From a virus (lineage: Duplodnaviria; Caudoviricetes): 64,000 bases of DNA. Shown here one piece after another: positions 30,911 through 64,000 of this stretch. Within the stretch, counting starts at the first letter, position 1, and each line of letters opens with the position of its first letter. Both the position numbers and the translations under genes were made by a program. The stretch is taken from positions 64,001 to 128,000 of IMG/VR virus record IMGVR_UViG_3300014039_000013. One strand, written 5' to 3'. The notes beneath the pieces were generated by a model, which searched no databases, was not told the origin of the DNA, and was given only the letters and a program-made list of their open reading frames with translations.

Positions 30911-31297
30911 TCATAATGTATTATAAATTGTGTTTATACGATTTATATAAAGTGGATCAGAAGCATATCCTATTCTTTTTAAGAATGAAGTATATTTTTC
31001 TCCAACTTTATATCTTGATTGTATTTTATCTTTATACATCTTTACAGAATAACTCCAATGCGGAAATCTATAAAGCCCATGAGAATGGGAAAGTCCGAAT
31101 AAATTATTATGTTTTTTACTAGGTTTTAAGCCACACTCTTGGATGGCTTGTGCTAATACATATTTTTTATTGTGTATGTTATGATATTTACATACTAAAA
31201 TTATGTTTTCTTTTGTTGGCTTTAAATGTTCAAATTGTTTTTGTCCAAACATTAAATTACTAATAAAAAACATAATTACTAATAAGTAATTTTTCAT
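30911..31297 (-). CDS. Glucosaminidase (GH73-like) with N-terminal signal/anchor
   Basis: VLAQAIQECG, NNLFGL, GYASDP.Y. Confidence 0.75.
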   Translation of the reverse strand: MKNYLLVIMFFISNLMFGQKQFEHLKPTKENIILVCKYHNIHNKKYVLAQAIQECGLKPSKKHNNLFGLSHSHGLYRFPHWSYSVKMYKDKIQSRYKVGEKYTSFLKRIGYASDPLYINRINTIYNTL

Positions 31298-31695
31298 TAT
31301 TTAAATAAATCACGATTCTGGATTAGATTATATAAAGATTTTCCAATCCATTCCACAAGAGGTTCATTTGCAGATTCTGTATCATATTGTCCTTCACTTA
31401 ATATAACGTGTACTAATTCATGATAAAGAGTTCTACTTTGAGTTATTAATGGTATTGGGCTTCCATTTAATTTTGTAGCTATCCAAATTTCTCTTTTGTC
31501 ATAATGTGTTTGGCCAAAGAAAAAATTATCTTTATTACTTGGTATTTCGTCTACATATTTAATTACCCAATTTACATCTAAATATTTAAAAGGTATATTT
31601 TTAATTATTTTCAACTTTTGTGAATTGGCCATAAGTATGATTATTAATAATTGGTTTGTGGTTTTGAGGATGTAACATTTCTGTTCCATCTTCAT
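31297..31695 (-). CDS. Small HExxH metallopeptidase-like protein
   Basis: FFGQT...I.I; TLYHELVH; NEPLV. Confidence 0.65.
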   Translation of the reverse strand: MKMEQKCYILKTTNQLLIIILMANSQKLKIIKNIPFKYLDVNWVIKYVDEIPSNKDNFFFGQTHYDKREIWIATKLNGSPIPLITQSRTLYHELVHVILSEGQYDTESANEPLVEWIGKSLYNLIQNRDLFK

Positions 31696-32529
31696 TAAGT
31701 ATTAGAATTTTACAAAAAGAATTTCTTACTTCTTGTATAATTCCTTTATGATTTAAATCATTTGTATGTGTTCTAGTAATTTTAACTTTATCACCTACAT
31801 TCCAAAGTTTCCAATTTTTCATTTAATATAAAATTTTGATAAAATCCAATAAATAATTTTTCTATACCATAGTTCATTATCTAAGTCTACATCTTTTGTA
31901 TGTTTTCTAAATAAATGTAAATCGTATAAAAGATTATGAGCTTTCCATTCATTTATTAAACTTGACATAGAACGTTTATTTACTATATAATCATTTAATA
32001 AATAATCATATCTAATTTGCTAAATTAAACGTTCCATATCTTTAGTTTCTTTTACTTTATATGAATCATATATTGTAACACAATTCGGAGTTACATGATA
32101 TTTAATTTTCATTTAAATAATTTATGAAACCTTCAAGAATATCGGCTTCAGTTTGGTATAATGATTTAAGTTGTTCAGAAGTAAAATTATCTTTTAATTC
32201 TGAAATAGTTTTTATTTTTTCGGCGTCTCTTAAATCACATACTTTATTATCTTTTGTCAGTCCTATTATCATAATTTGAATATCTTGTTGGGCTTAATTT
32301 CTATAAATTAGTATAATCTTTCGATGTAGTAGTTTGTTTCTATAATTTTTGATATTGTTTTTCTTGTCAAAGACTCTAGTTTCTATCAATTTTTACATCT
32401 TTATAACCGTGTTTCTATAAAAATTTTTATTTATCTTTTATTTTCTATTTTTAGAGGTTAAAACAGATGACATTGGATTGGCACTACTATCAGCAGGTAA
32501 TAATGATAACCTCATCTAAGCTTTAGGAA

Positions 32530-33120
32530 TTATTTGCATAACTTAACAATAGTATTATAATGAATATCAACTATAGTTTGTTTACCTTTTTCTGAAAGAA
32601 GAAAGTCTACATCTTCTTTATTATCTTGAAAAAGATTTTCTGTAAGAACAGCAGGACATTTAGTGTCTCTACACATTGCTAAATTTTGTACCCAATAATG
32701 TTCTTTTGGAATTGATCTATTACCTTGTTGATTTAATTTTAAAGCTTCGTCATAAAGAGTTTTAGCAAGTAATTTAGAATTATTTGAAGCGTTTAATGAT
32801 ACAAATACAGACCATCCTTTAGCAGAATGCCATTTACCATCGCCACCAGCAGCATTACAATGTACTGATATTGAAATTGCATTTTTATTATTTTTTAGAT
32901 ATTCAGAATTTATTCTTCTACATCTTTCTTTTAAAGATATATCAGTAGCTTCTGGTGTAACTATAAATACTTTGTATCCATTATCTATCAATTTCTTAGA
33001 TAATAACTATACTATTTCTCTAGCATAACTATATTCTTTAAGTTTTTTATCAGGAGAACACTTTCCAGGAGTATTTACTCCATGTCCATTATCAAGACAG
33101 ATTAAAGTTTGTTTATTCAT
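32530..33120 (-). CDS. N-acetylmuramoyl-L-alanine amidase (Amidase_3) endolysin; one in-frame TAG (33007-33009); 196 aa
   Basis: LDNGHGVNTPGKCSPD..LKEYSYAREIV*LL...SVHCNA...AVLTENLF. The Zn ligands H and E lie upstream of the TAG. Confidence 0.9.
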
Positions 33121-50253: not shown

Positions 50254-50342
50254 GGCTCTGTGGTGTATGGTTGCACGGGTTGACTCTAAATCAATATAGC
50301 CTTCTGAGGGCGGCGGAGTGGGTTCGATTCCTACCAGGGCTT
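50254..50342 (+). tRNA. Amber suppressor tRNA (anticodon CTA at 50286-50288) with long variable arm
   Basis: Acceptor GGCTCTG/CAGGGCT; D-arm GTGT-ATGGTT-GCAC; GTTGA-CTCTAAA-TCAAT; variable hairpin GCCTT-CTG-AGGGC; T-arm GTGGG-TTCGATT-CCTAC. Confidence 0.9.
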
Positions 50343-50349
50343 CTATAAT

Positions 50350-50818: not shown

Positions 50819-50848
50819 CAGGATGGACTTCGGTTCATCCTTTTTTTG
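50819..50848 (+). terminator. Intrinsic terminator
   Basis: GGATGGAC-TTCG-GTTCATCC followed by T7. Confidence 0.75.
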
Positions 50849-50859
50849 TTTTATAAAGT

Positions 50860-53595
50860 ATGGCAAAAAAAGAAAAAACTAAAAGAAGTAAATCATTTAC
50901 TGATTTATTAAATCAACTTGTTGAATCTCGTTAGAATAGAAATGTTGATTTAGAAGAAAAGAGAGACGCTATTAGAAATCCAGTTGAGGATTTACCACAA
51001 ATAGCAAAAAGTGAACTTTAGAATGAAGCAAATTCTAGAACTGTAATTAATAATACAAGCAATTGGAGTATTCAAACTAACGAATATGGATATCCTTATG
51101 TTTATTCTGAAGATTTTCAAGAAGCAATACCAGAAGAATTTTTAAATGATGTATTAGAAAAAGTTCCACAATTAAAATAGGGCTATTAGAATATACGAGC
51201 TGTATATGAACAAAATGCACATCCAACAGTAATAACACAAGGTGAAGATCATTCTAATGATACTCCTTATCAATAGAAAATGCGTGAACAAAATAATAGA
51301 TATTGGGCAAGACAATATGAACAAAACACAGGAGCAGAAGCTCTTAGCGGATTGTTGGCTCCACTTATGCCATCATAGTGGGTTTCTGCAATATCTAGAG
51401 GTATACAAGATAAATCTTTTTTATCTGCATTAGAAGGCTTATATACAGGTCATGGATTTAAAGATTTAAATAGTTCTGCATTACAAGGAGATTTAGGTAC
51501 TGCGGCAAATTTTGTATTTGATATTCTTGGTCCAGTAGCTGTAGGTAAAGTTTTAAAAGGATCAATGTCTGTAACAGATGGTATAGCTTAGGCTTTAAAA
51601 AATAGTAATATAGTAAATCAAATAAAGTTAGGTACAAAATATGCAAGATAGCTTGGATATTTAGGAATGAATATGCCGCTTCATATATTAAAACCAGAAG
51701 AGGCATTTCAATTAGTTAAATAGGGTGTTAATGATAAAGATGTATTAGATTATATAAACACATTATCAGATGATGTAATTGCAAAAGCAGCAAAAGATGC
51801 TAAATTTACTAAAAAAAGTATTGTAAATTTTGGTACACACAGTGCCAGTGATAGAGTCGCTAATGCTTTGGCAATTAACAAAGCTAAATATCCAATAACC
51901 GAAACTCCTATTAGAGATTTAGCAGAATTAAAGAAACAAATTGCAAGTTTAGAATCTAAAGCCAAAACCACAAAATTAACAAGATCAGAAAAAAGTTAGC
52001 TTGAAAAATTAAAAACGCAAGTTTAGCAAATACGTGGTTTAAAAAGAACTAATGCTAAAAATAATTTAACGGACGAATAGTTAATAGATAGTTTTAACAA
52101 AAATCCAGAAGATCCAATAGCATTACAACTTATTAAAGATAAAAATTTATATCCATTAGTATAGAGTAGAGATATTTATACTAAATTAGCAACTGGAAAA
52201 AGAATAACAGAAGCAGAAAGACAACTTATTAAATATGAAGATCTTACTGAAAAAGAATTATAGAATTTAAAAACACTTGATTACAAAAATGGATTTAATA
52301 GTGCTGGTATAGATGAAGCTATAGCAAAAAAACAATCTATTGTTAATTAGCCTACAACGCCTGGATCTACACCTAACTCTACTACAGCTTCAGAACCATC
52401 ACCTACTGTTTAGCCAACCACAGAACCTGTAGCTAATCCAGTTATTGAACCACTGTCAGTTAATAATCCAACATCAACAGCCCCAGAACCTGTAGCTGTT
52501 CAAGAACCAACAAACCCCACAGAATATACTTTTATAATTGATACTCCTACAAGAAGCATTAAACTTAATGTATCAGATCCTAACTCAACTAAAGCATTTG
52601 ATGAATTTGGAAACGAATATGGAGTTGTATGGTAGAAAAACGAATACGGAGAGCTAACACCTAAATTAACAGGTGAAGTTAAAATAGATAAAAGTCAATA
52701 CAATAGGTTATTTTCGACAAATCCAAATGTTGATTTATCTTCTGGGGAAGTTAGAATGGTTGAAGGAGAAAGTAGAAATAAATTTACACATCCGCAAGAT
52801 TTCTTTACAAAACCAAAGAAAAATAAGAGAGGCAAAATTGGAACTTACTTTCTTGGAGAAAAAGCTAGACCACAAAAAGTAAAACCTACACTAGTAGAAT
52901 ACGGTGACGAACTTTATAATTTATACTCTAATGTTGATATACCAGAACACACCAAAACTATTAATTGGTGGACAACTGCTCCAGCATTAGGTGGAACTGG
53001 TTATGGATTGTATTCTTTAGGTGATTGGATTTTTGGAAAAGATACACCAGAAGAAAAAGCAGCAAAGTTAAAACAAGAAGCACAAGAGAAAAAAGCCGAT
53101 ATACAAGAAGCAATACAAAGTGCACGCATACCAATTTATGATTTTGAAGGAGAATTAGCTGATACAGTATCAATTAATATTAATGGTAAACCACAAATTT
53201 ATGCTATAAAACCTACAAATAAAATTGATCCAGAGTACCATCCCGATTCAAATATTTGGTCTGGTATTCCAATTACTATTGATAAAGATGGTATTGGGCA
53301 TATTAGGAGTGATGAACCAACATTCTTTACTAAGAAATATGGAAAATGGATTCAAGTAAACAGTGCTCATGATTTAGCAACTCCAGATTAGTTTTAGCAA
53401 GTTAATGACACAACAAATATGGATAATAGTTTACCAGCTGTTAGTATGCCAAGTTAGCCATCAGAACAAACCCCAACTAGATAGTCTACTCCAGTTCAAA
53501 GACAACAACCAGTTGAACAAAATACTGATCCAGATGATGATTATGTAAAAAATGATTTTTTAAAAACATTATTTAATAATACATATTATGTTTGA
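50860..53595 (+). CDS. Large TAG-recoded protein (911 aa, ~21 TAG), putative virion cargo
   Basis: One frame without TAA/TGA from ATG 50860 to TGA 53593; includes track ORF 52756-53391; has Pro/Thr linkers and hydrophobic segments. Confidence 0.85.
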
Positions 53596-54274
53596 TACTC
53601 CATTTGTTACATACGACCCATTTGCCACATATAATCAAGTTGATCCACCGCAAATAGATTATAAAGAATCAAATTACCAACTATAGTCTTTGATTGACAA
53701 TTTAAAAAATCTTGATTTTAATAAAAGATTAGACGTAGATGATTTGCCTCAAATTGAGAATAATCATGAGGTTAAAAATGATGAATATAATATCCAAAAT
53801 AATACGTCTGACGATAAAGATACTACACAAGCAAATACAGAAACAAAACCTAATAACAAAAAAGCTCAATTGGAATCTGTATTAGATGCTTAGGGAATTA
53901 CAGGGTAGAAAAAAACAACATTACTAAAAATTGCAAAAATCGAATCTGGATATAATCCTAAATCATAGGCTAAGGGTTCTTCCGCTTGTGGATTATTTGG
54001 TTTTATTAATAGTACCAGAAAGCAATTTAGTAATTTAAGTAGAAAAGACTTTTTAAATGATATAGATGAACAAGTTAGGTGTGCATCACAGCTTTATGAA
54101 GCTCAAAAATAGTTTTTAATAAGAAAAGGATTTAATCCATCTCCAGAGGCGATCGCATTAAGTTGGTTTAGTCCAAAATGGGCAATAACATATTTAAAAA
54201 ATGGAGTTGATGAAGGTAAGGATATATTTGGAACTACACCTAGTAAATATTTAAAAAAATTCAGAGAAGCATGA
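53588..54274 (+). CDS. SLT-family lytic transglycosylase, TAG-recoded (228 aa)
   Basis: LLKIAKIESGYNPKS*AKGSSACGLFGFINST. Confidence 0.85.
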
Positions 54275-54837
54275 CAATGACTTAGTATGATAGAGTGTAT
54301 TAGGACGTAAACGCTAGAATCGATACATTATTACCATTATTTAAAAGATTAAAATCATAGTACAAATTGTCTGACACATAGGCAATGGGGTTATTAACTA
54401 ATATAGCGGCAGAATCTGGCGGAAATCCAAATGCAAGAAATGGTCAGTATTTTGGATATACTTAGTTATCTCCTATGCAAGTTGATTTTATTAAAAAATA
54501 CTATGGTAGTACAAACGAACATGCATAGTTAAGATATTTAACAGACGGTATGCGCGGAAAGATTAAAACAAATGATAATAATATTAATTATGAATTAAAA
54601 ATGTTGCAAAAGCTTAATAAAAATTATACAGATTCATTATCTTTTGCAAGAGATTTTCATAAGTATCATGAAAGAAGCGGAAGTCAAGATTGGCCAAAAC
54701 GACAATTGTATAATAAAGCATTAAGAGAAATATTTAAAAATAAATTTCATATTAATGTTGCCTCTAATTTATTTAATCCTAATATAGATTTATATAATCA
54801 AAATATAGATTTAAATGAGCAAAACTATCTCACCTGA
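54271..54837 (+). CDS. Phage tail lysozyme-like protein, TAG-recoded (188 aa)
   Basis: LSDT*AMGLLTNIAAESGGNPNA..YFGYT*L ... *LRYL ... FHKYHER; ATGA overlap with the upstream gene. Confidence 0.8.
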
Positions 54838-56260
54838 AGAAGTTATTAAAAATGGATATTCGTTTATAAAAACTACAGACGGAAGACTTGTTTTAGTAGA
54901 TAAGGATTACAATATTTTAATTAATGATGTTTAGAACCAACCTTAGCTACATGATTGGATAGATTTACATAAATTGTGGAATCATCCAGAAGGATTAGTT
55001 GCAACGCATAATTATAATCATATTCGTAATTCTGAAGGAATGAAAGCAATTGATGATGCTGTAAGGTGGGGAGGAAATACGGCTGGGCTATTCGCTACAA
55101 CAGTAGCATTAGCTCCAACTGCTCTTACGAGTGTTGTTACATATACCCCTATAATTGGATAGAAGTTTGTAAAACCATTTTTAAAATCAATGGATTATTT
55201 ATTTAATCCAACAACATATCATGGCGGTTTGCTTTCTAGTGCGGTTGCTGCTAATGAAATTAATAATTTTAAGAATAATCCAAATATTGAAAATGGTGTT
55301 TATGCTGGATTATCGTTATTGCCATTTTATCCAGCAGTAAGATCTGCCATTTCTAAAACAACAAATACAGCAAAAGATTTATATGAATTATTAAAATATA
55401 ATCCTACATCTAAATTAACTTATCAACCAAGTATAACAACTTTTACACCAAATCCTAGTATATATTATAAATCTATTTCCGTTGGTAATACATATTGGCC
55501 AAAACAGAAAGATATATTTAAATACAATGCTTATTTAGATTCTTACTTTTATACGGATAAAGTTAAAGCTTTAATTAAATAGTTTGAATTAGATGGAAAC
55601 TTAAAAACATTATAGTAGTCGTTAAAAACTCTTCCAGAAAAAGATGCAGAATAGTTAAGAATGTTTTTAAAGACATATAATTTTTAGCACGACAAAGTAC
55701 CTTATTATGATTCATTAGACAAATTATTAAGCGATCATCCTAGTTTAAGAAGATCGTATGATAGTTCTCCACGTAGTTCAAAACAAGATATTAATCGAGC
55801 TGCTGGAGTTGTAATTGATAATGGAGAAGATTATGCTGTTTTAATTAGAGAGGATAGCTAGATCGATCATGAATACGAACATATGCTTCAAAGAAAAAGA
55901 TAGAATCAAAATGGTCCATATCTTGAAGAACAAGTAAATCTTTTACAATCTGCTTATAAACATACAGATGGAGATCCAATAACATCATTAACTGATGAAA
56001 AAGGTGCTGTAAATTAGCAATTAAGAACTTCTATTATTAATTAGTTTGAATAGGAATTTAATAGACATCCAACTGTTGAAGAATATTAGAGATATGTAGA
56101 TTCAATACCAGACGATTATTTAAATGCAATGCTGAATACTGATACAAATGATTATGGAATGCAATATTCTAGTAATAATTCTGATATTGGATTAATAAAA
56201 CAAGCATTAAAATATATTGGAATTTCATCTGTTCCATTAGTATTTAAAAATAAAGAATAA
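54815..56260 (+). CDS. TAG-recoded protein with C-terminal HExxH zincin domain (481 aa)
   Basis: Joins track ORFs 54974 and 55190; HEYEH near 55870 with a downstream E (DEKGA). Confidence 0.8.
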
Positions 56261-56261
56261 T

Positions 56262-56298
56262 AAAAAAGCTCGGCTATTTCTAGTCGAGCTTTATTTTT
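56262..56298. terminator. Bidirectional terminator between convergent operons
   Basis: AAAAAAGCTCGGCTA-TTTC-TAGTCGAGCTTTATTTTT. Confidence 0.8.
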
Positions 56299-56918
56299 TA
56301 TATATATCTACGTATGTTTTCTATTTTCATTTTTGGTAATTTTCTTTCAACAACACCAGATTTTTTATTTGCGGCGTCTATAATATAAATCTAACCGTTT
56401 GAATCAATCTTACTTACTAATCCAATATGCTTACCACTTGATGATGCGTTAGAAGCAAATTGGATTATATCTCCTTTTTGGACATCATTAAAATTAATTT
56501 TATCTCCAGATTTTCCTTGCTATGCAGCTGTTCTTGGAACATTTATTCCAGCAGATGCAAACACTGTTTGAATCAATCCACTACAATCAAATCCATTTTC
56601 CGAAGTTCCTCCCCAACGATAAGGTGTACCAATGTAACTTCTAGCTTTACTGATGATTTTGTCAACAACATTATTAGGTGTATACACAGTAGGATTAGAT
56701 AATTCTCTCTAAGTTACTGGAACAGGTAGCTCTGTAGTATAAGAAGCTACATCATAATCGCTTGGTTTTAATATAGTTGGTAAGTGTTCAGTATCATTAT
56801 TATCATAATTTAAATAATCAAAAATACTTAATTGCTACGAACTTGGATTATATAAAGATTGTATTGTTGGAAGCGATTGTTGGAAATAAGGAGAATAAGA
56901 AATATAATTATTCTGCAT
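56298..56918 (-). CDS. NlpC/P60 peptidase, TAG-recoded (206 aa)
   Basis: ARSYIGTPYRWGGTSENGFDCSGLI..VPRTAA*Q..KGDII.F..HIGLV. Confidence 0.92.
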
Positions 56919-59900
56919 ATAAATCAAACATATAATTTATAATAACATCAATTTCGTCATCTGTAAAATTTTGATCTTTTAATTTATTTTTTAAATAATC
57001 TTCTGTTTTAAAATTATGTCCGTGTGATTTTTCATTTGCTTCATTAAACATATCTTGTAATGGTAATGACTCTATATTTTTATTTTTTAATAAAGTAGCA
57101 TAATTCTATGCATCTTCATTTATCACGCCTTTATGTAATTTACGTTTTAACGATCGATACCCTACCATACCAAGACCTCCTAACATACCAAGACCAAAAC
57201 CAATAGTTGGCGTCATAATTGCTGCGTTCACAAAATTATTTTTTAAATTACTTGTATTATGTATTCCACTAAGATATAAATTTCTCCAAGTATTTGATTG
57301 TCTTGATAATATATTTTGCGCAGACTAAACGTCATATGATGGGAAATATAAGCCAGTAGAAGGTTCGGTTGCTTTAGATTGATAATTTCTCAATAATTCT
57401 TGAAATTCTTGGGAATAATTTGGTGAAGTGAATAGTTTTACTCTATCAATGACCTAATCATTAGATTTTGTGTGTGCTATTGTTGGTATATCCCACTTAT
57501 TAGAAAATGTTAAACCTACTTCTGGTGTCCAACCTTTCTATATTAAATATTTAGTTGGATCATTCTAAATATCTAGCATGCCAACATAAGACCCACCATA
57601 TGCCCCTACGCCTCTATTTGTTGCCATAGATCTCCATAATCCTAAATTACTTGATTGTGATGCATTAAAAACACTTTTTGGATCTGAATAATATTCAGAT
57701 CCAAAATTGTTTTTATTAGTAACACGTTTTACTTGATCCACAAATTCATTTAATGTTAAATTGTCATCATATGACAATCTACCAATACGAACGGAACGGA
57801 ATGGGAAATTATCACCAAATGCTGTAATACCACCACTAGTGTGATTCTGTCCTACACCAGAACCAGTTCCACCTCCATACTAAATATTTTCAGTAAACCC
57901 TCTTAATAATTCTTCATTTGTTAAATCTCTGCCAACATATGGAGAATATCTACCTTGTGCTCGTAATCCATAAAAATTATTCATATAATATACATCAAAT
58001 ATATTCTACATTTGTTTTGGATTTTTAGCAATTTCATTTATTTGGTTTTCTGTAAAATATTGTTTTGCTGAATTTTCATTTATAACTTCTTGTAAAAATT
58101 TTTTATTAGCTTCAACGTCATCAAATCCTGTAATTTGTGCAGACGGACGTTTCCATGTTGAGCCAAATAAAGATTTTCCTTTTGTTAGAATTGCAGATTC
58201 AATAGCAGACTACTGTTCTGGCATGGTTAATAAATTATAAGCTCTATATCCTTGTTTCGCGTTTGCTGGATTTTGTGCACTTAAGTTTGCGCCCATAAAT
58301 AAAACATCAGACAAATGAACTTTTGCAACATTATCTCCTTGTCTAAGTTCCTAAAATAACTATTCAGCAGATACTGGAAGAGGTATATCGTAAGTAGTAA
58401 TTTCGTTTAATTCATTAGCTTTATATAACCTATTTGCTTCTTCTGGATGTAATACAGAATATATCTAATGTGCTAGTTTACCAACGGCCTATCCATTTTC
58501 GTTTTCTTGAATTATATCAAAATCAACGCCATTTGTGTTGCCCTGGGCAAATTCAGAAACTCCTTTTTCATCGCCAAGACCATTTGTTCCAGTTTGCTAA
58601 AAATGTATATTAGATTTTGCTTTATTTAATCTAGCAGCAGTAGTTATAATTTCTGTATCATTATTAACTTGGTTTTGAATAAAGCCCCTTCCGACACCAA
58701 CAGTTGATCCTGTAACTAGCCCCTCACCATTTAAGGTTTTATTCAGGCTACTTTCGTAATTTCTAACAGCTTTTATGATTTCTGGATTTGAAAATCTTGA
58801 CTAATATAATCTTCTAGTTATTTTTGTGGATATAGTTATCGGTTTATCTTTTACAAGTAAAAAATTATAAGGAGCTTCCCCTATTTTTAATTCAATATTC
58901 TAGAGATTTTCTGGAGTTTGTAACATAACTGCACCACCACTTACATTACTTGTAGTATTTCCAAATTTTACTTCAAAATTTGGTACAACCATATCAACAT
59001 ACACTGGCTCTGGTTGTTTATTAAATTCTGGATGATGTAATATTTCCTGTTCTGATTTATATAAATCAGGAAATAAAATTTTCTTTTCGTCATCTTTAGA
59101 AAAATAACCATCAGAATATTTTTTGTCTCTTAAACGAGTAGTTAGATTATTCCAAGATTTTTTAGGTCCATACTAAAATAAATATCTCATATTAGTCCAT
59201 CTTTCAGGGATTACATTTTCACCAAGCCACTATCCAGCTTTTTTAGCTGTATTATATACACCCTTATATGTTTTACTAGGAATACCAAAAAACGGTGTTG
59301 CCGCCAATGCAAAATTGGCAACCGCCGCAGCCTTTCCGTCATTTATATTAAATGCGTGTTTTAATTGATCCCATCCTTCTGCTGTATAATAACTAAACTA
59401 CGCACCATTAGCAGCTGCTCCCCAACCCGTGTTTGCAAACAAAAGAGGATACTTATATCCTTGCGTCATTAAAGATGGTGTGGTTCTTGTAAATAAAGTT
59501 TCTGCCAATGTTCCTAAATTAGTATTTGGTAAAACTCTATCAACTAAAAACTATGTTCCTTTTTGTGCAGCATTTGTTGCTTGACCAAGACCAAATCCAC
59601 CTAATGCAAATTCAGCAGCAACTGGAGCTGTTGCTACCGCTGCGAGACCCAATGCTGCTGCATCACCACCTTGTCTCATATCATCTCTAACTTGTTGTAT
59701 AGCATCCTTATGTGCAACAGTTGCTCTCTAGCTACTTTGAGTAAAATTTTCAGCTTTATCCCAAAGATTATTTTTATCTATCCACTATGTTAAAAATGGA
59801 GATCTCTATACATTTGGAACTATAACTTTATAACCATTGTTTTTGTCAACAAGTTGCAACTTACCATCTTGATTAGTTAAAAACGTGTATCCATATTTTA

Positions 59901-60117
59901 ATACATCATCCGCATTAACAGCTAAATGCCCATTTGAGTTTCTATACTATCCAGGAGACCATTTTCTATCTACTGTTACAGAAGCCTCATTAAGTTTAGT
60001 AGGGTTTTGTTCTGAAGCTAAATCTATAACCATATCATTAGCTTGTTGTTCTAATCGCTAGCCAAGCTACTACATCTACTATAAATACGGATTATCTTTT
60101 ATTTCGTCGTCATTCAT
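56908..60117 (-). CDS. Large TAG-recoded protein (1069 aa) with a putative pol-beta-type nucleotidyltransferase domain
   Basis: One frame without TAA/TGA from ATG 60117 to TAA 56908. LVTGST..G......NDTEII and a later VDFDII resemble the NTase signature; the function call is tentative. Confidence 0.75.
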
Positions 60118-61516
60118 TTTGTTTTAATATTTGTATTGGTAATGTTGAAAATAAAGTGCCAGTTAACGCTTTCCAAACATACGGCATTGATTCTTCATCT
60201 AATTTAAGATAATTTATTAATCCAGATTTAGGACTATTTTTAGGATAACTTTTTATTATTTGTAATGCTTGTTCATATCCAGGATATTCTTGTCCTATTT
60301 TTAATCCTAAATCTTTTCCTATATCTCTAGTATTCATTACTGCTTCAACAGGGGTAACAGATAGATCAAAATCTCCATAATAAGAATTTGGTTTAAATAT
60401 TTTAGAGCTTTTCGTTTTTAAAAATCGATGTTCTTTCATACCTAATTTTGGATCGCTTGCCATCAAAGATTCAGATACGTTTCCATGTTTGAAAGAATGC
60501 CCGTGCTCGTGTGCGCTAACATACTATGGACTCATATTTGAACCAAGATTATATGTAATATCACCATTGCCGTCAGCACTTCCTCCAATATCACTTTTTG
60601 GATCATAATATGTTGTTACTTTATATTTCTAATTGAATTCTGGTTTTTCGTAAGTTGGAGTATAATGTAATCCCATCTATTCAGCTTCAATGACATTTTG
60701 TTCAGCAGCCTATCTATATGCAGAACTATTTATCCAATCTACCGTTTCTTGTCGTCCCTATCTTATTAAATCAGACAAATTACCTGTTTCCCACTATTTT
60801 GTTTCTGGATTAAATAAATATGGATAACCATTTTCAGACCACGATTTACTTAGATATTTTCCATTAAATGTTGGAGTGTCCAATTTTGTTACACTAAACA
60901 TATTTCTTTTTGGATTAATACTATAAATTAATCTTTTAGGAACTTTTATAACTTTATTTCCAAGAATCATAAATGTTAAATCTGTCGTCAAACCAGCAAT
61001 CTATCTATTTTTAACAGGCTAATCAGTAGCAGTAAAAATTCGTTCTGCAACATATCCTGGTCTAGTAACATTTAAAACTGTGTTAAAATTTTGTTTACCA
61101 GACTAATAATAATCATTTGATTTTTGCTATTGATAAAATTGTTCTCTCTAAAAATCGTTATGATTATCTCCATCAGATGATGAAACATACGATGTATTAA
61201 ACAATGCTTTATCAGCATCGTCTTTTGCCTAATGCCACATATCATATAATTTCGAGTGCTCCGATAATACATCATCAAGATATTTATCTGGCACTTCTTC
61301 ATTATCATTCATAACAACTCCAACAGGATAACCAATTTGATTAAATTTAATAGTATAAACTGAACCCTTTAACCAATGATTTAAATCCTATGTTGTTTGT
61401 GCTGCTTCTGGATTATTATTTATAAATTCCTATGAATCTGTTAATCTTATGGCATCCCGCGGTTGTTCTAAAGTTTTAGTACGAAATTTTATTTTTGTTT
61501 TCTTTTTATTTACCAT
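60110..61516 (-). CDS. TAG-recoded protein with C-terminal HExxH zincin domain (468 aa)
   Basis: Joins track ORFs 60794 and 60110; AHEHGH at 60497-60511 with a downstream VEAVMN. Confidence 0.8.
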
Positions 61517-63002
61517 TTATTTTTAAACTATTTAAATATTTTCTCAAATAATCATAATTTAAGTCTTGATATCTACCTGCTCTATCGCTATACATCCAAC
61601 CAGTGCCTAATTCATTAGGTATAAGTTCTGTATAATTACCTTTAGGAGTAATTGTTATTGATGGTAATTGATAAGCACCATTATACATAGCTTTTGTGTT
61701 ACCATTATTATAATATAAATCTGAACCTAAATAATCTAGTACTCTATCTGTATTATTAGGTACAGCTTGTCTTGCAGACATGTTAAACACCCTATCATTA
61801 TTTAACCAAGAATTAATACCTAAATCAGGATAAGTAGGATGGCTAGGTTTCTTATAAGTACCACTTTTTCCAGCATCTGGGAAATGTGCTTTACTTCCTT
61901 GTTCTATAGCTTTTAACTGTCTATATGCTTCAGTAGGATTATCATTGTAATATTTTTGATAATCATAATCATCCTTGTTTATATCTTGGTTGTTCCATGC
62001 TTTAGATAATCTAGTGGAGAAATCTTTATATGATTTTTTAAGTGGCCCTCCCTCTGCATATCCAACGACACCCCTTGCTCTTAACCTTTCTGGAGGAGTA
62101 ACCTTCTCAGTATCATAAACAATTTTTCCAAATTGATTTCTATAAACACCCTCACCTATAGGGGTCAGATTAATAAAAGCAGGATCTGTTGTATTTGAGT
62201 CAGCATACACGTAATCACCCTTTCTTCTAACAGGACCACCTTCAGCATGTTTTGTTTTAGCCTTTTTTGCTTCTGCTTCTTCGGCCATCTTTTTCCTTGT
62301 TGTTTTTAAAGAGTCCGCTGTTGCCACCGCAGAACGATGTATAGCGATTGGACGATTCCAATAATAGGGAGCTGTACCTACAACACCTTGAGGTAGATTT
62401 GCTCCCTGCTGCCAAGGGTACACATTACTCAGAAAAGTAGGATAACCCTTATAATATGTTGTACTATTAGGTGCAAGGGGACCCTTACCAGAAAAGTAAG
62501 GCTGTTCATGTTGTGAATATAATTTTCTTAAAGTCTCCCAATATTCTTTAGTGGGTATGCCTGCTACTGTTGTAGGTTTTTTTGATTTAGTGGGAGATTT
62601 CTCTTCTGTCCCTTGTAAATTATCATATAAATTTTTACCTGTAATGACAGAGGAAGCATCATCTGGTACACCTACTAAAGATGCGTATCCGGGTAGCATT
62701 CCTACTGCATCAAAAGCTAGTGAACTCATAGCACTGGTAGGGTCTTGCCCATTTCTATAAGCTTCTTTGGCTGTATATATATATCAAATGCTAAATCGGG
62801 GACCTATAGTCCAGGGAGTAGGGATCATTTGTAATGTACTTCCTACTACCGATGCGCCAGCTGCCATTCTTTGTGCATTTTCCCACTTTTCATCAAAGTC
62901 AAGAGTGCTTTCCGTTTGGTATTGTGCGTCTCTTGCTACCTGAGTTTCAGGTAACCCTACTATATCAATAGGAGGTATCTCTTGTATATATGTTCTACTC
63001 AT
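61506..63002 (-). CDS. Hypothetical virion-type protein in two in-frame parts (62784-63002 and 61506-62729) separated by one TGA
   Basis: Both ORFs are in the same frame with 18 open codons between them; AEGGP occurs twice; no TAG. Confidence 0.6.
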
Positions 63003-63562
63003 TATAATCTATCTATAAAATGTACAATATTTTTATCTTCTTTCATTTTTTGTGTAATAATAGGATTGTGTTTTTTAGCCCATTTCTTAATAGTACTAAA
63101 CCAGTTCATTCTTTTAATATTCTGCCAGAATGAAAGATTTGAATAGAATGGGATATAAGTATAATCCATTATCTGAAATTTTTCATTTAATATAATTCTC
63201 CAATTCTTTTTAATAGCAGCAAAAGAAATCTTAGCAAGGTAGGGAGGTAAAAACAAAAGTTCTTTTTCAAAGCATTCCTCATCCTTACTATTACCTTTTT
63301 CTAATATTAATCTGATATGAAAATCTTGATAATCATCTAGTATTTCATATAGCATTTTAAATCTCTTATTAAAGTTTACTAAACCATGACATAATTCCCA
63401 ATATCCATCTTTAGTTCTGTGAACTCTAATATCAAGATATTTAACTCCTAAATCTTGCTGCTCTTTTATTGTCTTTGTTTGTGTTCTCCATAAAAAAGAA
63501 AACAACTCATATATTTTATTTTTAGCTTTTAAATAAGTAAAGCTATCATGTGTTCCTATCAT
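63002..63562 (-). CDS. PI-PLC-like phosphodiesterase
   Basis: GTHDS, RTQTKTIKEQ..GVKYLDIRV, CHG. Confidence 0.8.
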   Translation of the reverse strand: MIGTHDSFTYLKAKNKIYELFSFLWRTQTKTIKEQQDLGVKYLDIRVHRTKDGYWELCHGLVNFNKRFKMLYEILDDYQDFHIRLILEKGNSKDEECFEKELLFLPPYLAKISFAAIKKNWRIILNEKFQIMDYTYIPFYSNLSFWQNIKRMNWFSTIKKWAKKHNPIITQKMKEDKNIVHFIDRL

Positions 63563-64000
63563 TTAATAATTATATTTAGAATTATTAATTAATTGTTGTA
63601 TTTGCGGATTAGTTAATAATAACTATCCATTAGTTTTTACTTTTTGAGTATGATCTTTTTCGTTAGTATTATATATATTAGATTTATATCTTATAAAAGC
63701 GGACTCTATTGGATGTAAATTATAATTAATTTTTCTTTCTTGATTAATAAGATAATTCCATCCTATATCTTCTTTCTATAAATTTGAATTTTTACTAGCT
63801 TTGCGTTCTTGGTTCAATCGATTATCTGTTATTCTGTCTGTACTATTTAAATATTCATCATATGGATTATCTTCAAAATATGCCCAATTACTAAGTAACA
63901 CAACTGGTGAATACATGTTGTTTCCAGAATTAAAACTTCGCCAATGTTTAGAATTAATCATACCGTTATACTATATTCCAGCAGTCCGATCTTTATGATT
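63563..64000 (-). CDS. 3' part of a TAG-recoded hypothetical gene entering from outside the window
   Basis: The frame is open from 64000 to TAA 63563 with three TAG. Confidence 0.65.

Follow-up and report, generated by a model that had tools for sequence, protein, structure and literature searches.

The window analysed here, a stretch of 64,000 nucleotides (nt), represents bases 64001-128000 of a 160,403-bp IMG/VR virus record (G000) with direct terminal repeats, and its region 50860-61516 carries two convergent operons encoding four large proteins (P0001 to P0004) together with three wall hydrolases. On the plus strand, the order is P0001 (50860-53595, 911 amino acids (aa)), an SLT transglycosylase (53588-54274), a Phage_lysozyme2 protein (54271-54837) and P0002 (54815-56260, 481 aa). 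The minus-strand operon contains, from the window edge, open reading frames (ORFs) of 295, 186 and 407 aa, followed by P0004 (60110-61516, 468 aa), P0003 (56908-60117, 1069 aa) and an NlpC/P60 peptidase (56298-56927). The four large proteins are read in translation table 15. The operons meet at a bidirectional intrinsic terminator recognised by its pattern (56265-56292), which has a 12-bp stem with an A-run upstream and a T-run downstream. Adjacent genes overlap by 4-23 nt on both strands, so both operons look translationally coupled. A first-pass annotation, made by a model from the letters of the window, had described two convergent operons, each with one member of two protein pairs plus wall hydrolases, and this arrangement is borne out by the Pfam assignments of the hydrolases and by the hairpin between the operons. 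The minus operon extends past the window to genome position 129555 and stands back-to-back with the operon of the terminase and portal, about 4-7 kb away. The same convergent layout of hydrolases and large proteins recurs in four related recoded contigs (L008, L011, L013 and L017), the more distant of which have a glucosaminidase in place of the SLT enzyme.

With table 11 the region 50860-61516 is broken into short ORFs only, while table 15 leaves the four long ORFs intact, with 21 TAG codons in P0001, 14 in P0002, 28 in P0003 and 14 in P0004. The reading of TAG as Gln is well supported, since TAG aligns with Gln codons in orthologues: between the phage and its closest relative, 69 TAG positions face a codon other than TAG, and in 42 of them this codon is CAA or CAG. 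All peptides quoted in the first-pass annotation are present in the table-15 translations, and its view that the recoding is real and hides the region from standard annotation is confirmed by these data. An amber suppressor tRNA with the anticodon CTA was found by ARAGORN at 50254-50343 (plus strand, 90 nt), directly upstream of the recoded block. ARAGORN labels it tRNA-Pyl, and its length implies a long variable arm, despite the alignment of TAG with Gln.

The large terminase matches phrog_6681 (E 5.5e-70), is about 29% identical to the terminases of many crAss-like phages and 45-50% identical to those of two human-faecal phages whose records carry no annotation. For the portal the match is phrog_6547; weak matches to the muzzle protein gp44 and the tail protein gp43 of crAss001 are found in the genome, and the position of the crassvirus RNA polymerase (RNAP)-associated proteins is taken by three giant ORFs (2879, 3123 and 1590 aa). 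From these matches and the placement of the giant ORFs, the phage is a distant, large crAss-like virus; judged by sequence, this 160-kb gut-type phage belongs to Crassvirales as a distant member.

Two N-terminal modules are distributed among the four large proteins. Module A, of about 115 aa, is carried by P0002 (residues 1-120, nt 54815-55174) and P0003 (residues 60-180, nt 59578-59940). Residues 4-86 of P0002 align with residues 66-148 of P0003 at 30% identity (BLASTP E 3e-12), and a hidden Markov model (HMM) of the module matches these two proteins alone among all ORFs of the genome. Its conserved pattern runs GY-F, DG-L-LVDK, DV-QP-L-DWI, LW, a helix, WGGN-AG and an Ala/Gly/Pro-rich hydrophobic stretch. 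AlphaFold predicts, with a local confidence score (pLDDT) of 75-95, a helix, three to five short strands and further helices, the trailing hydrophobic region being poorly modelled.

Module B is shared by P0001 (residues ~27-150, nt 50938-51309) and P0004 (residues ~12-140, nt 61097-61483). The similarity is weak (residues 27-156 against 12-143, 23% identity, BLASTP E 2e-4), but this pair was the sole non-self match when the N-termini were compared with all ORFs of the genome (phmmer E 2.3e-4), and it became stronger against the P0001 orthologue of the relative (E 8e-6 to 1e-5). The N-terminus of P0004 also matches an ORF in an unrelated IMG/VR contig, L014 (E 2.7e-6), which represents a third lineage with module B; this ORF starts with MAKK, keeps W..QFN..G..P and VPEKY, continues with a Gly/Ala hydrophobic stretch and adjoins a module-A gene. 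Known from three lineages only, module B is accepted, on these alignments, as a genuine but narrowly distributed element. No similarity was found in the cross pairs between A and B members, and a candidate single family uniting both modules was ruled out by profile comparison with hhalign. Thus, the four proteins form two families, not one. The first-pass annotation was right that the N-termini match within both pairs, pair B being the weaker (E 2e-4 to 1e-5), and wrong in regarding all four proteins as one paralogous family. No Pfam or PHROG family was assigned to either module, to any other part of the four proteins or to ten module-A relatives.

An exhaustive HMMER search with P0003 of 1.8 billion representatives showed that the same module A heads proteins of 395-1142 aa. 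Its HMM recovers about 25 clusters of metagenomic proteins, whose C-termini fall into at least six unrelated classes: an HExxH body (proteins of ~480 aa, or of 730-760 aa with a 270-residue insert), a nucleotidyltransferase (NTase) body (1058-1142 aa), and others in proteins of ~700 aa (P0056 and P0076), 681 aa, 625 aa and 395-399 aa. The C-termini are thus not invariant, and the swapped payloads proposed in the first-pass annotation were recovered with this HMM of the N-domain. P0007, a protein of 779 aa, was not counted as a separate architecture, since over its first 285 aa it shares 96% identity with P0074 (1060 aa) and is perhaps a truncated or chimeric call. All members of the module-A family come from TAG-recoded metagenomic contigs, many of them of 150-220 kb.

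The joins between module and body differ in the relatives. L011 encodes the HExxH body alone without module A, a separate 316-aa protein headed by the second half of module A and the hydrophobic stretch, and the distal NTase region as an ORF of its own, and in L013 the second half of module A is joined to the NTase body in a 963-aa protein. The closest relative, L008, has protein identities of 62-91%. Modules and bodies are thus reshuffled among related phages. Beyond this group, the region and P0003 had no match among INPHARED phages (megablast, tblastn), and no relatives turned up when IMG/VR was scanned with single-sequence patterns of P0003 and P0002. A profile scan with alignment A3 found one IMG/VR locus, L014, and no match among Joint Genome Institute (JGI) metagenome contigs; word-indexed protein searches with residues 1-125 of P0002 and with P0001 returned only the query itself and an orthologue of 76-89% identity.

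Variable C-termini on module A, and mosaic joins at differing points in relatives, would fit a true polymorphic toxin-immunity system used in competition, or neutral mosaic late genes whose shared N-termini derive from recombination. The toxin part of this explanation is opposed by the absence of small immunity-like ORFs after the genes in the window, L008, L011 and L013, where genes overlap or abut, and by Pfam, PADLOC-independent scans and fold searches, in which no known toxin domain was found; the neutral part, by the strong conservation of module A across proteins otherwise 30-40% identical, which argues for selection on a function. We consider both variants improbable, and the resemblance to polymorphic toxins drawn in the first-pass annotation comes down to an architectural analogy.

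Behind the modules, the four proteins differ. P0001 has weakly hydrophobic segments at residues 161-238 and a Pro/Thr-rich tract at about residues 497-560; one orthologue was found (76% identical), which covers the body with this tract. In P0002 the Gly/Ala-rich hydrophobic segment (residues 89-115) lies inside module A, and the C-terminal domain (residues 223-470), predicted to be helical, carries an HExxH motif, HEYEH, at residues 352-356 (nt 55868-55882). The motif is retained as HE[YMF][ET]H in seven orthologues of 35-83% identity; fold searches gave no clear fold match for this domain. P0004 carries HEHGH at residues 336-340 (nt 60497-60511), a part that no homologues cover in the local comparisons made.

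P0003 has hydrophobic segments at residues 149-179 and, late in the protein, at residues 961-987, as well as a putative Pol-beta-like NTase domain at about residues 440-870 (nt 57508-58800). In its part between residues 440 and 650, the residues G470, S471, D487 and E489, which make up a G[GS] motif and a D-x-[DE] pair, are conserved in at least 30 of ~32 homologues. The payload of P0003 is predicted to have a Pol-beta-type NTase fold, an assignment backed by the conserved GS...DxE and by fold searches. P0003 gave nothing significant against BFVD, and PDB sequence searches were either empty or gave spurious matches. The same NTase-like domain occurs, together with two LysM domains and a YkuD L,D-transpeptidase domain, in a 1871-aa protein of a non-recoded phage contig with a P22-type portal (L016:307-5922, plus strand). 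Inside the P0003 coding region lies a near-perfect palindrome with a 14-bp stem (57676-57706; TTTTGGATCTGAATA...TATTCAGATCCAAAA).

These bodies agree with the middle regions listed in the first-pass annotation, namely HExxH in P0002 and P0004, a putative NTase in P0003, for which the four conserved residues and the fold searches now speak, and a Pro/Thr-rich tract in P0001. The layout that it ascribed to all four proteins, with a hydrophobic segment after the N-domain and another one late, stands in part: a clear segment follows the N-module in three of the four, Gly/Ala-rich where that module is A, and the late segment is present in P0002 and P0003 and absent from P0004.

A conserved N-terminal adaptor with an exchanged C-terminus is the pattern of tailspikes. 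The four proteins might accordingly be external tail-tip or fibre-like virion components, their N-modules anchoring exchangeable enzymatic or receptor-binding bodies on the tail, and the proximity of the operons to structural genes and the matches of the hydrolases to tail-associated families point the same way. However, the structure models are mostly helical, with long low-confidence, disordered stretches flanking compact domains and with hydrophobic segments, and do not resemble beta-rich fibres; the payloads have a predicted NTase fold and HExxH motifs, not depolymerase or receptor-binding folds; and the tail genes, as well as the genes targeted by a diversity-generating retroelement, are located elsewhere in the genome. 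A position on the tail surface thus has little probability.

The three wall hydrolases were assigned by Pfam matches above or near thresholds. The lytic transglycosylase (228 aa) has an SLT domain at residues 73-206 (E 3.3e-5) and matches transglycosylase, tail fibre and baseplate hub families of PHROG. The Phage_lysozyme2 protein, a 'phage tail lysozyme' of 188 aa (E 5.6e-9), matches a tape-measure-associated PHROG family, and the NlpC/P60 peptidase (209 aa, E 1.3e-19) matches minor tail and tail protein families. Low-complexity N-terminal leaders are present on the SLT and NlpC/P60 proteins; a signal peptide or transmembrane (TM) anchor was found in none of the three. Holin- or spanin-sized small ORFs are absent between the overlapping genes of the two operons. 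A candidate endolysin of the Amidase_3 family, with one TAG codon, is encoded at 32530-33120 (minus strand), away from both operons. It belongs to a candidate lysis region (30911-33120, minus strand) within an otherwise TAG-free early/middle block, where two further ORFs were noticed: one of 128 aa (30911-31297, minus strand), which has a glucosaminidase-like motif and whose N-terminus is signal-like, and one of 132 aa with HELVH (31297-31695, minus strand).

The clustering of three peptidoglycan hydrolases raises the question of lysis. In a late lysis or envelope-remodelling module, segments like signal-anchor-release (SAR) domains would tether the large proteins to the inner membrane, and together with the hydrolases they would dismantle the Bacteroidota envelope late in infection. 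The hydrophobic segments, rich in Gly, Ala, Ser and Thr, do resemble SAR domains, lysis genes have been reported among those of the recoded late cassettes in crAss-like phages (bioRxiv 10.1101/2021.08.26.457843), and the relative of the NTase-like domain is fused to the wall domains LysM and YkuD. In SAR endolysins, however, such a segment is N-terminal, whereas here it comes after N-domains of 90-150 residues. The separate Amidase_3 candidate with its gating TAG, the lack of holin or spanin ORFs, the stronger matches of the hydrolases to tail and virion families than to endolysin families, and the size of the four proteins (470-1070 aa), which is atypical of lysis cassettes, also stand against it, as does the NTase, which requires cytoplasmic NTPs. 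Lysis is, for these reasons, an unlikely role for the region, less so than tail-surface display or a toxin system.

The reading that we favour, and to which we give about an even chance, is that the four proteins and the hydrolases are cargo that the virion ejects, or an ejectosome; that they are packaged and ejected, and that the N-modules have a part in this, we infer from context. The products of the late TAG-gated operons would travel in the virion and be expelled into the host before the DNA, to breach the envelope and act as early effectors, and would be functional counterparts of the crassvirus cargo proteins, of N4 gp51/gp52 and of T7 gp14-16. The SLT transglycosylase, the tail lysozyme, the NlpC/P60 peptidase and possibly an enzyme similar to phosphatidylinositol-specific phospholipase C (PI-PLC) would open the envelope. 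In their N-modules the large proteins would have a shared handle by which they are packaged, ejected and inserted into the membrane. Module A consists of a small alpha/beta domain and, after it, a weakly hydrophobic helix rich in Gly and Ala; module B is unrelated, but a hydrophobic stretch comes after it too. The variable C-terminal bodies, among them the Pol-beta-type NTase and the HExxH domains, would act in or at the host cell, and recombination would exchange handles and bodies between related phages.

The ejected-cargo reading is favoured by the presumed late, TAG-gated expression of TAG-rich genes located after the suppressor tRNA, and by the position of the minus operon, adjacent to and divergent from the packaging and structural operon. 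It is also favoured because the hydrolases lack export signals and have their best PHROG matches among tail, tape-measure, baseplate-hub and virion families, and because the endolysin candidate is encoded elsewhere while holin- and spanin-sized genes are missing from the operons. The Gly/Ala-rich hydrophobic segments are similar to the predicted TM region of crAss001 gp45, a protein found in virions by mass spectrometry (PMC10172136), and the layout with N-terminal and C-terminal hydrophobic segments is also that of N4 gp51/gp52 (PMC13434306). The repertoire of HExxH, NTase, SLT and NlpC/P60 domains is that of virion-delivered polyvalent proteins. Moreover, the first gene of the minus operon, an ORF of 272 aa located beyond the window (G000 128737-129555, minus strand), carries a 43-aa motif 77% identical to residues 381-423 of gp45. 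Bayfield et al. (2023; PMC10172136) point out that gp45 has no homologue in the epsilon group and that crassviruses may differ in their cargo sets. The presence of module A on its at least six C-terminal classes and the conservation of the layout in four contigs were counted in favour as well, and the predicted low-confidence regions around the compact domains are compatible with unfolded passage through the tail channel.

Several findings weigh against this cargo assignment. The four proteins have no homology to crAss001 gp45 or gp46 (BLASTP, HMM) or to any PHROG virion family, and their packaging in the virion is inferred from context. The canonical cargo slot, between the muzzle-like gene and the giant RNAP-like genes, is occupied by other ORFs of 536, 1031 and 615 aa, and the true cargo could be encoded there. 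With Kyte-Doolittle values of 1.3-1.8, the hydrophobic segments are weak, and they have no clear positive-inside bias, and P0004 has no such segment at Kyte-Doolittle >= 1.0. Finally, the orthologue of P0004 in L008 (L008:9688-10020, plus strand) has 110 aa, in which residues 1-46 are joined in frame to residues 399-461. The core of P0004 was thus deleted in frame in L008, and module B with the HEHGH region is, from this alignment, seemingly dispensable or recently lost in a close relative.

More tentatively, modules A and B may be previously undescribed delivery handles of a crAss-like lineage without a gp45 homologue. Each would consist of a folded N-domain and a marginally hydrophobic helix, which would load its bearer into the cargo zone of the capsid and tail and then insert it into the inner membrane of the host, so that exchangeable enzymatic payloads would enter as injected early effectors. 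We regard this more specific proposal as possible and clearly less probable than the ejected-cargo reading in general.

The remaining genes of the minus operon were also inspected. The 407-aa ORF (61506-62729, minus strand), for which no family was assigned, is free of TAG among genes with 14-28 TAGs. AEGGP motifs recur in it, and it has a hydrophobic stretch at the N-terminus. Since an unrelated gene of 442 aa fills this slot in the closest relative, the ORF may have been inserted recently. The 186-aa ORF (63002-63562, minus strand), also TAG-free, has a GTHDS motif in its N-terminal part; its matches to bacterial PI-PLC are weak but consistent (Pfam PI-PLC-X E 0.09; PDB 2plc/1aod E 0.05). 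It is conserved in L008 (69% identity) and L011 (46%) and may be a lipid-cleaving part of the envelope toolkit. The 3' part of the 295-aa late ORF lies within the window (63563-64000, minus strand), and the operon runs on upstream.

The 43-aa Lys/Cys-rich motif at the head of the 272-aa protein reads KGKFT.YCGGKVT..CI.KGKNSS.P..RKRATFA.NAR.W. In crAss001 it lies inside gp45 (L009:11988-14516), and it was also found, 80% identical, at L011:15236-15613 (minus strand). An identity of 77-80% between phages whose terminases are only ~29% identical makes the motif look like a mobile mini-domain. The C-terminal part of the 272-aa protein contains an NNCADAT motif.

A terminator-like hairpin with a T-run (50820-50841, plus strand) lies 19 nt upstream of the P0001 ATG, so transcription of the plus operon must start at a promoter of its own or continue from the tRNA unit by read-through. 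Elsewhere in the late region of the genome, a reverse transcriptase gene with TAG codons (G000 148020-149294, plus strand; phrog_1423, E 5e-96) and three paralogous homing-endonuclease genes (G000 155359-159763, plus strand) were found.

Crassviruses are among the most abundant viruses of the human gut, and little has been described of what they inject beyond DNA and RNA polymerase. In the group nearest to this phage, no gp45 cargo protein can be recognised. If the four proteins are indeed ejected, an N-terminal handle with swappable bodies would be a sequence signature for injected effectors in uncultured recoded phages that table-11 annotation misses, and would point to directly testable host-takeover or anti-defence activities of the NTase and the HExxH enzymes. 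If they are instead lysis or tail components, the region would represent ordinary phage mosaicism.

Among known systems, the cargo proteins C1 and C2 of crAss001 (gp45 and gp46) are similar in being large late proteins of a crAss-like phage with long unstructured regions and, towards the N-terminus, a predicted membrane segment rich in Gly and Ala, and a neighbouring gene of the minus operon shares the 43-aa motif with gp45. Unlike gp45 and gp46, to which they have no homology, the four proteins are not encoded between the muzzle and RNAP genes, form two paralogous pairs with exchangeable bodies and share operons with three wall hydrolases.

MuF toxins and polyvalent proteins (Jamet et al. 2017; Iyer et al. 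2017, PMC5512222) likewise combine a conserved head-associated N-terminal module with variable enzymatic C-termini, including zincin-like HExxH domains, nucleotidyltransferases and wall hydrolases, and their genes are linked to those of the portal and terminase. In contrast, the proteins described here have one or two bodies each, separate hydrolase genes, new N-module families and no immunity genes. By Pfam, no MuF, portal or LPD domain was present in them, the only lead being a language-model match to LPD23 (score 0.84).

The ejectosomes of podoviruses (T7 gp14/15/16, P22 gp7/16/20 and N4 gp51/gp52) also consist of late proteins with membrane segments and lytic transglycosylase activity, proposed to bridge the envelope. 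They have no sequence similarity to the proteins of this region, and neither NTase or HExxH bodies nor paralogous N-modules belong to them. In T4, the internal proteins and Alt share a capsid-targeting sequence joined to diverse injected payloads, and the locus is hyperplastic. This is similar to the joining of a shared N-terminal element to diverse payloads in the phage considered here, but in T4 the prohead protease cleaves the shared sequence, which has about 10 residues, whereas modules A and B are folded domains of 115-130 residues with hydrophobic segments and no known cleavage.

The joining of a conserved N-terminal handle to variable injected bodies, with hydrolases nearby, has precedents in MuF toxins, polyvalent proteins, T4 internal proteins and crassvirus cargo. 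What is new here is two N-modules outside Pfam and PHROGs, paired in convergent operons, in a recoded lineage whose genes are fragmented by standard annotation.

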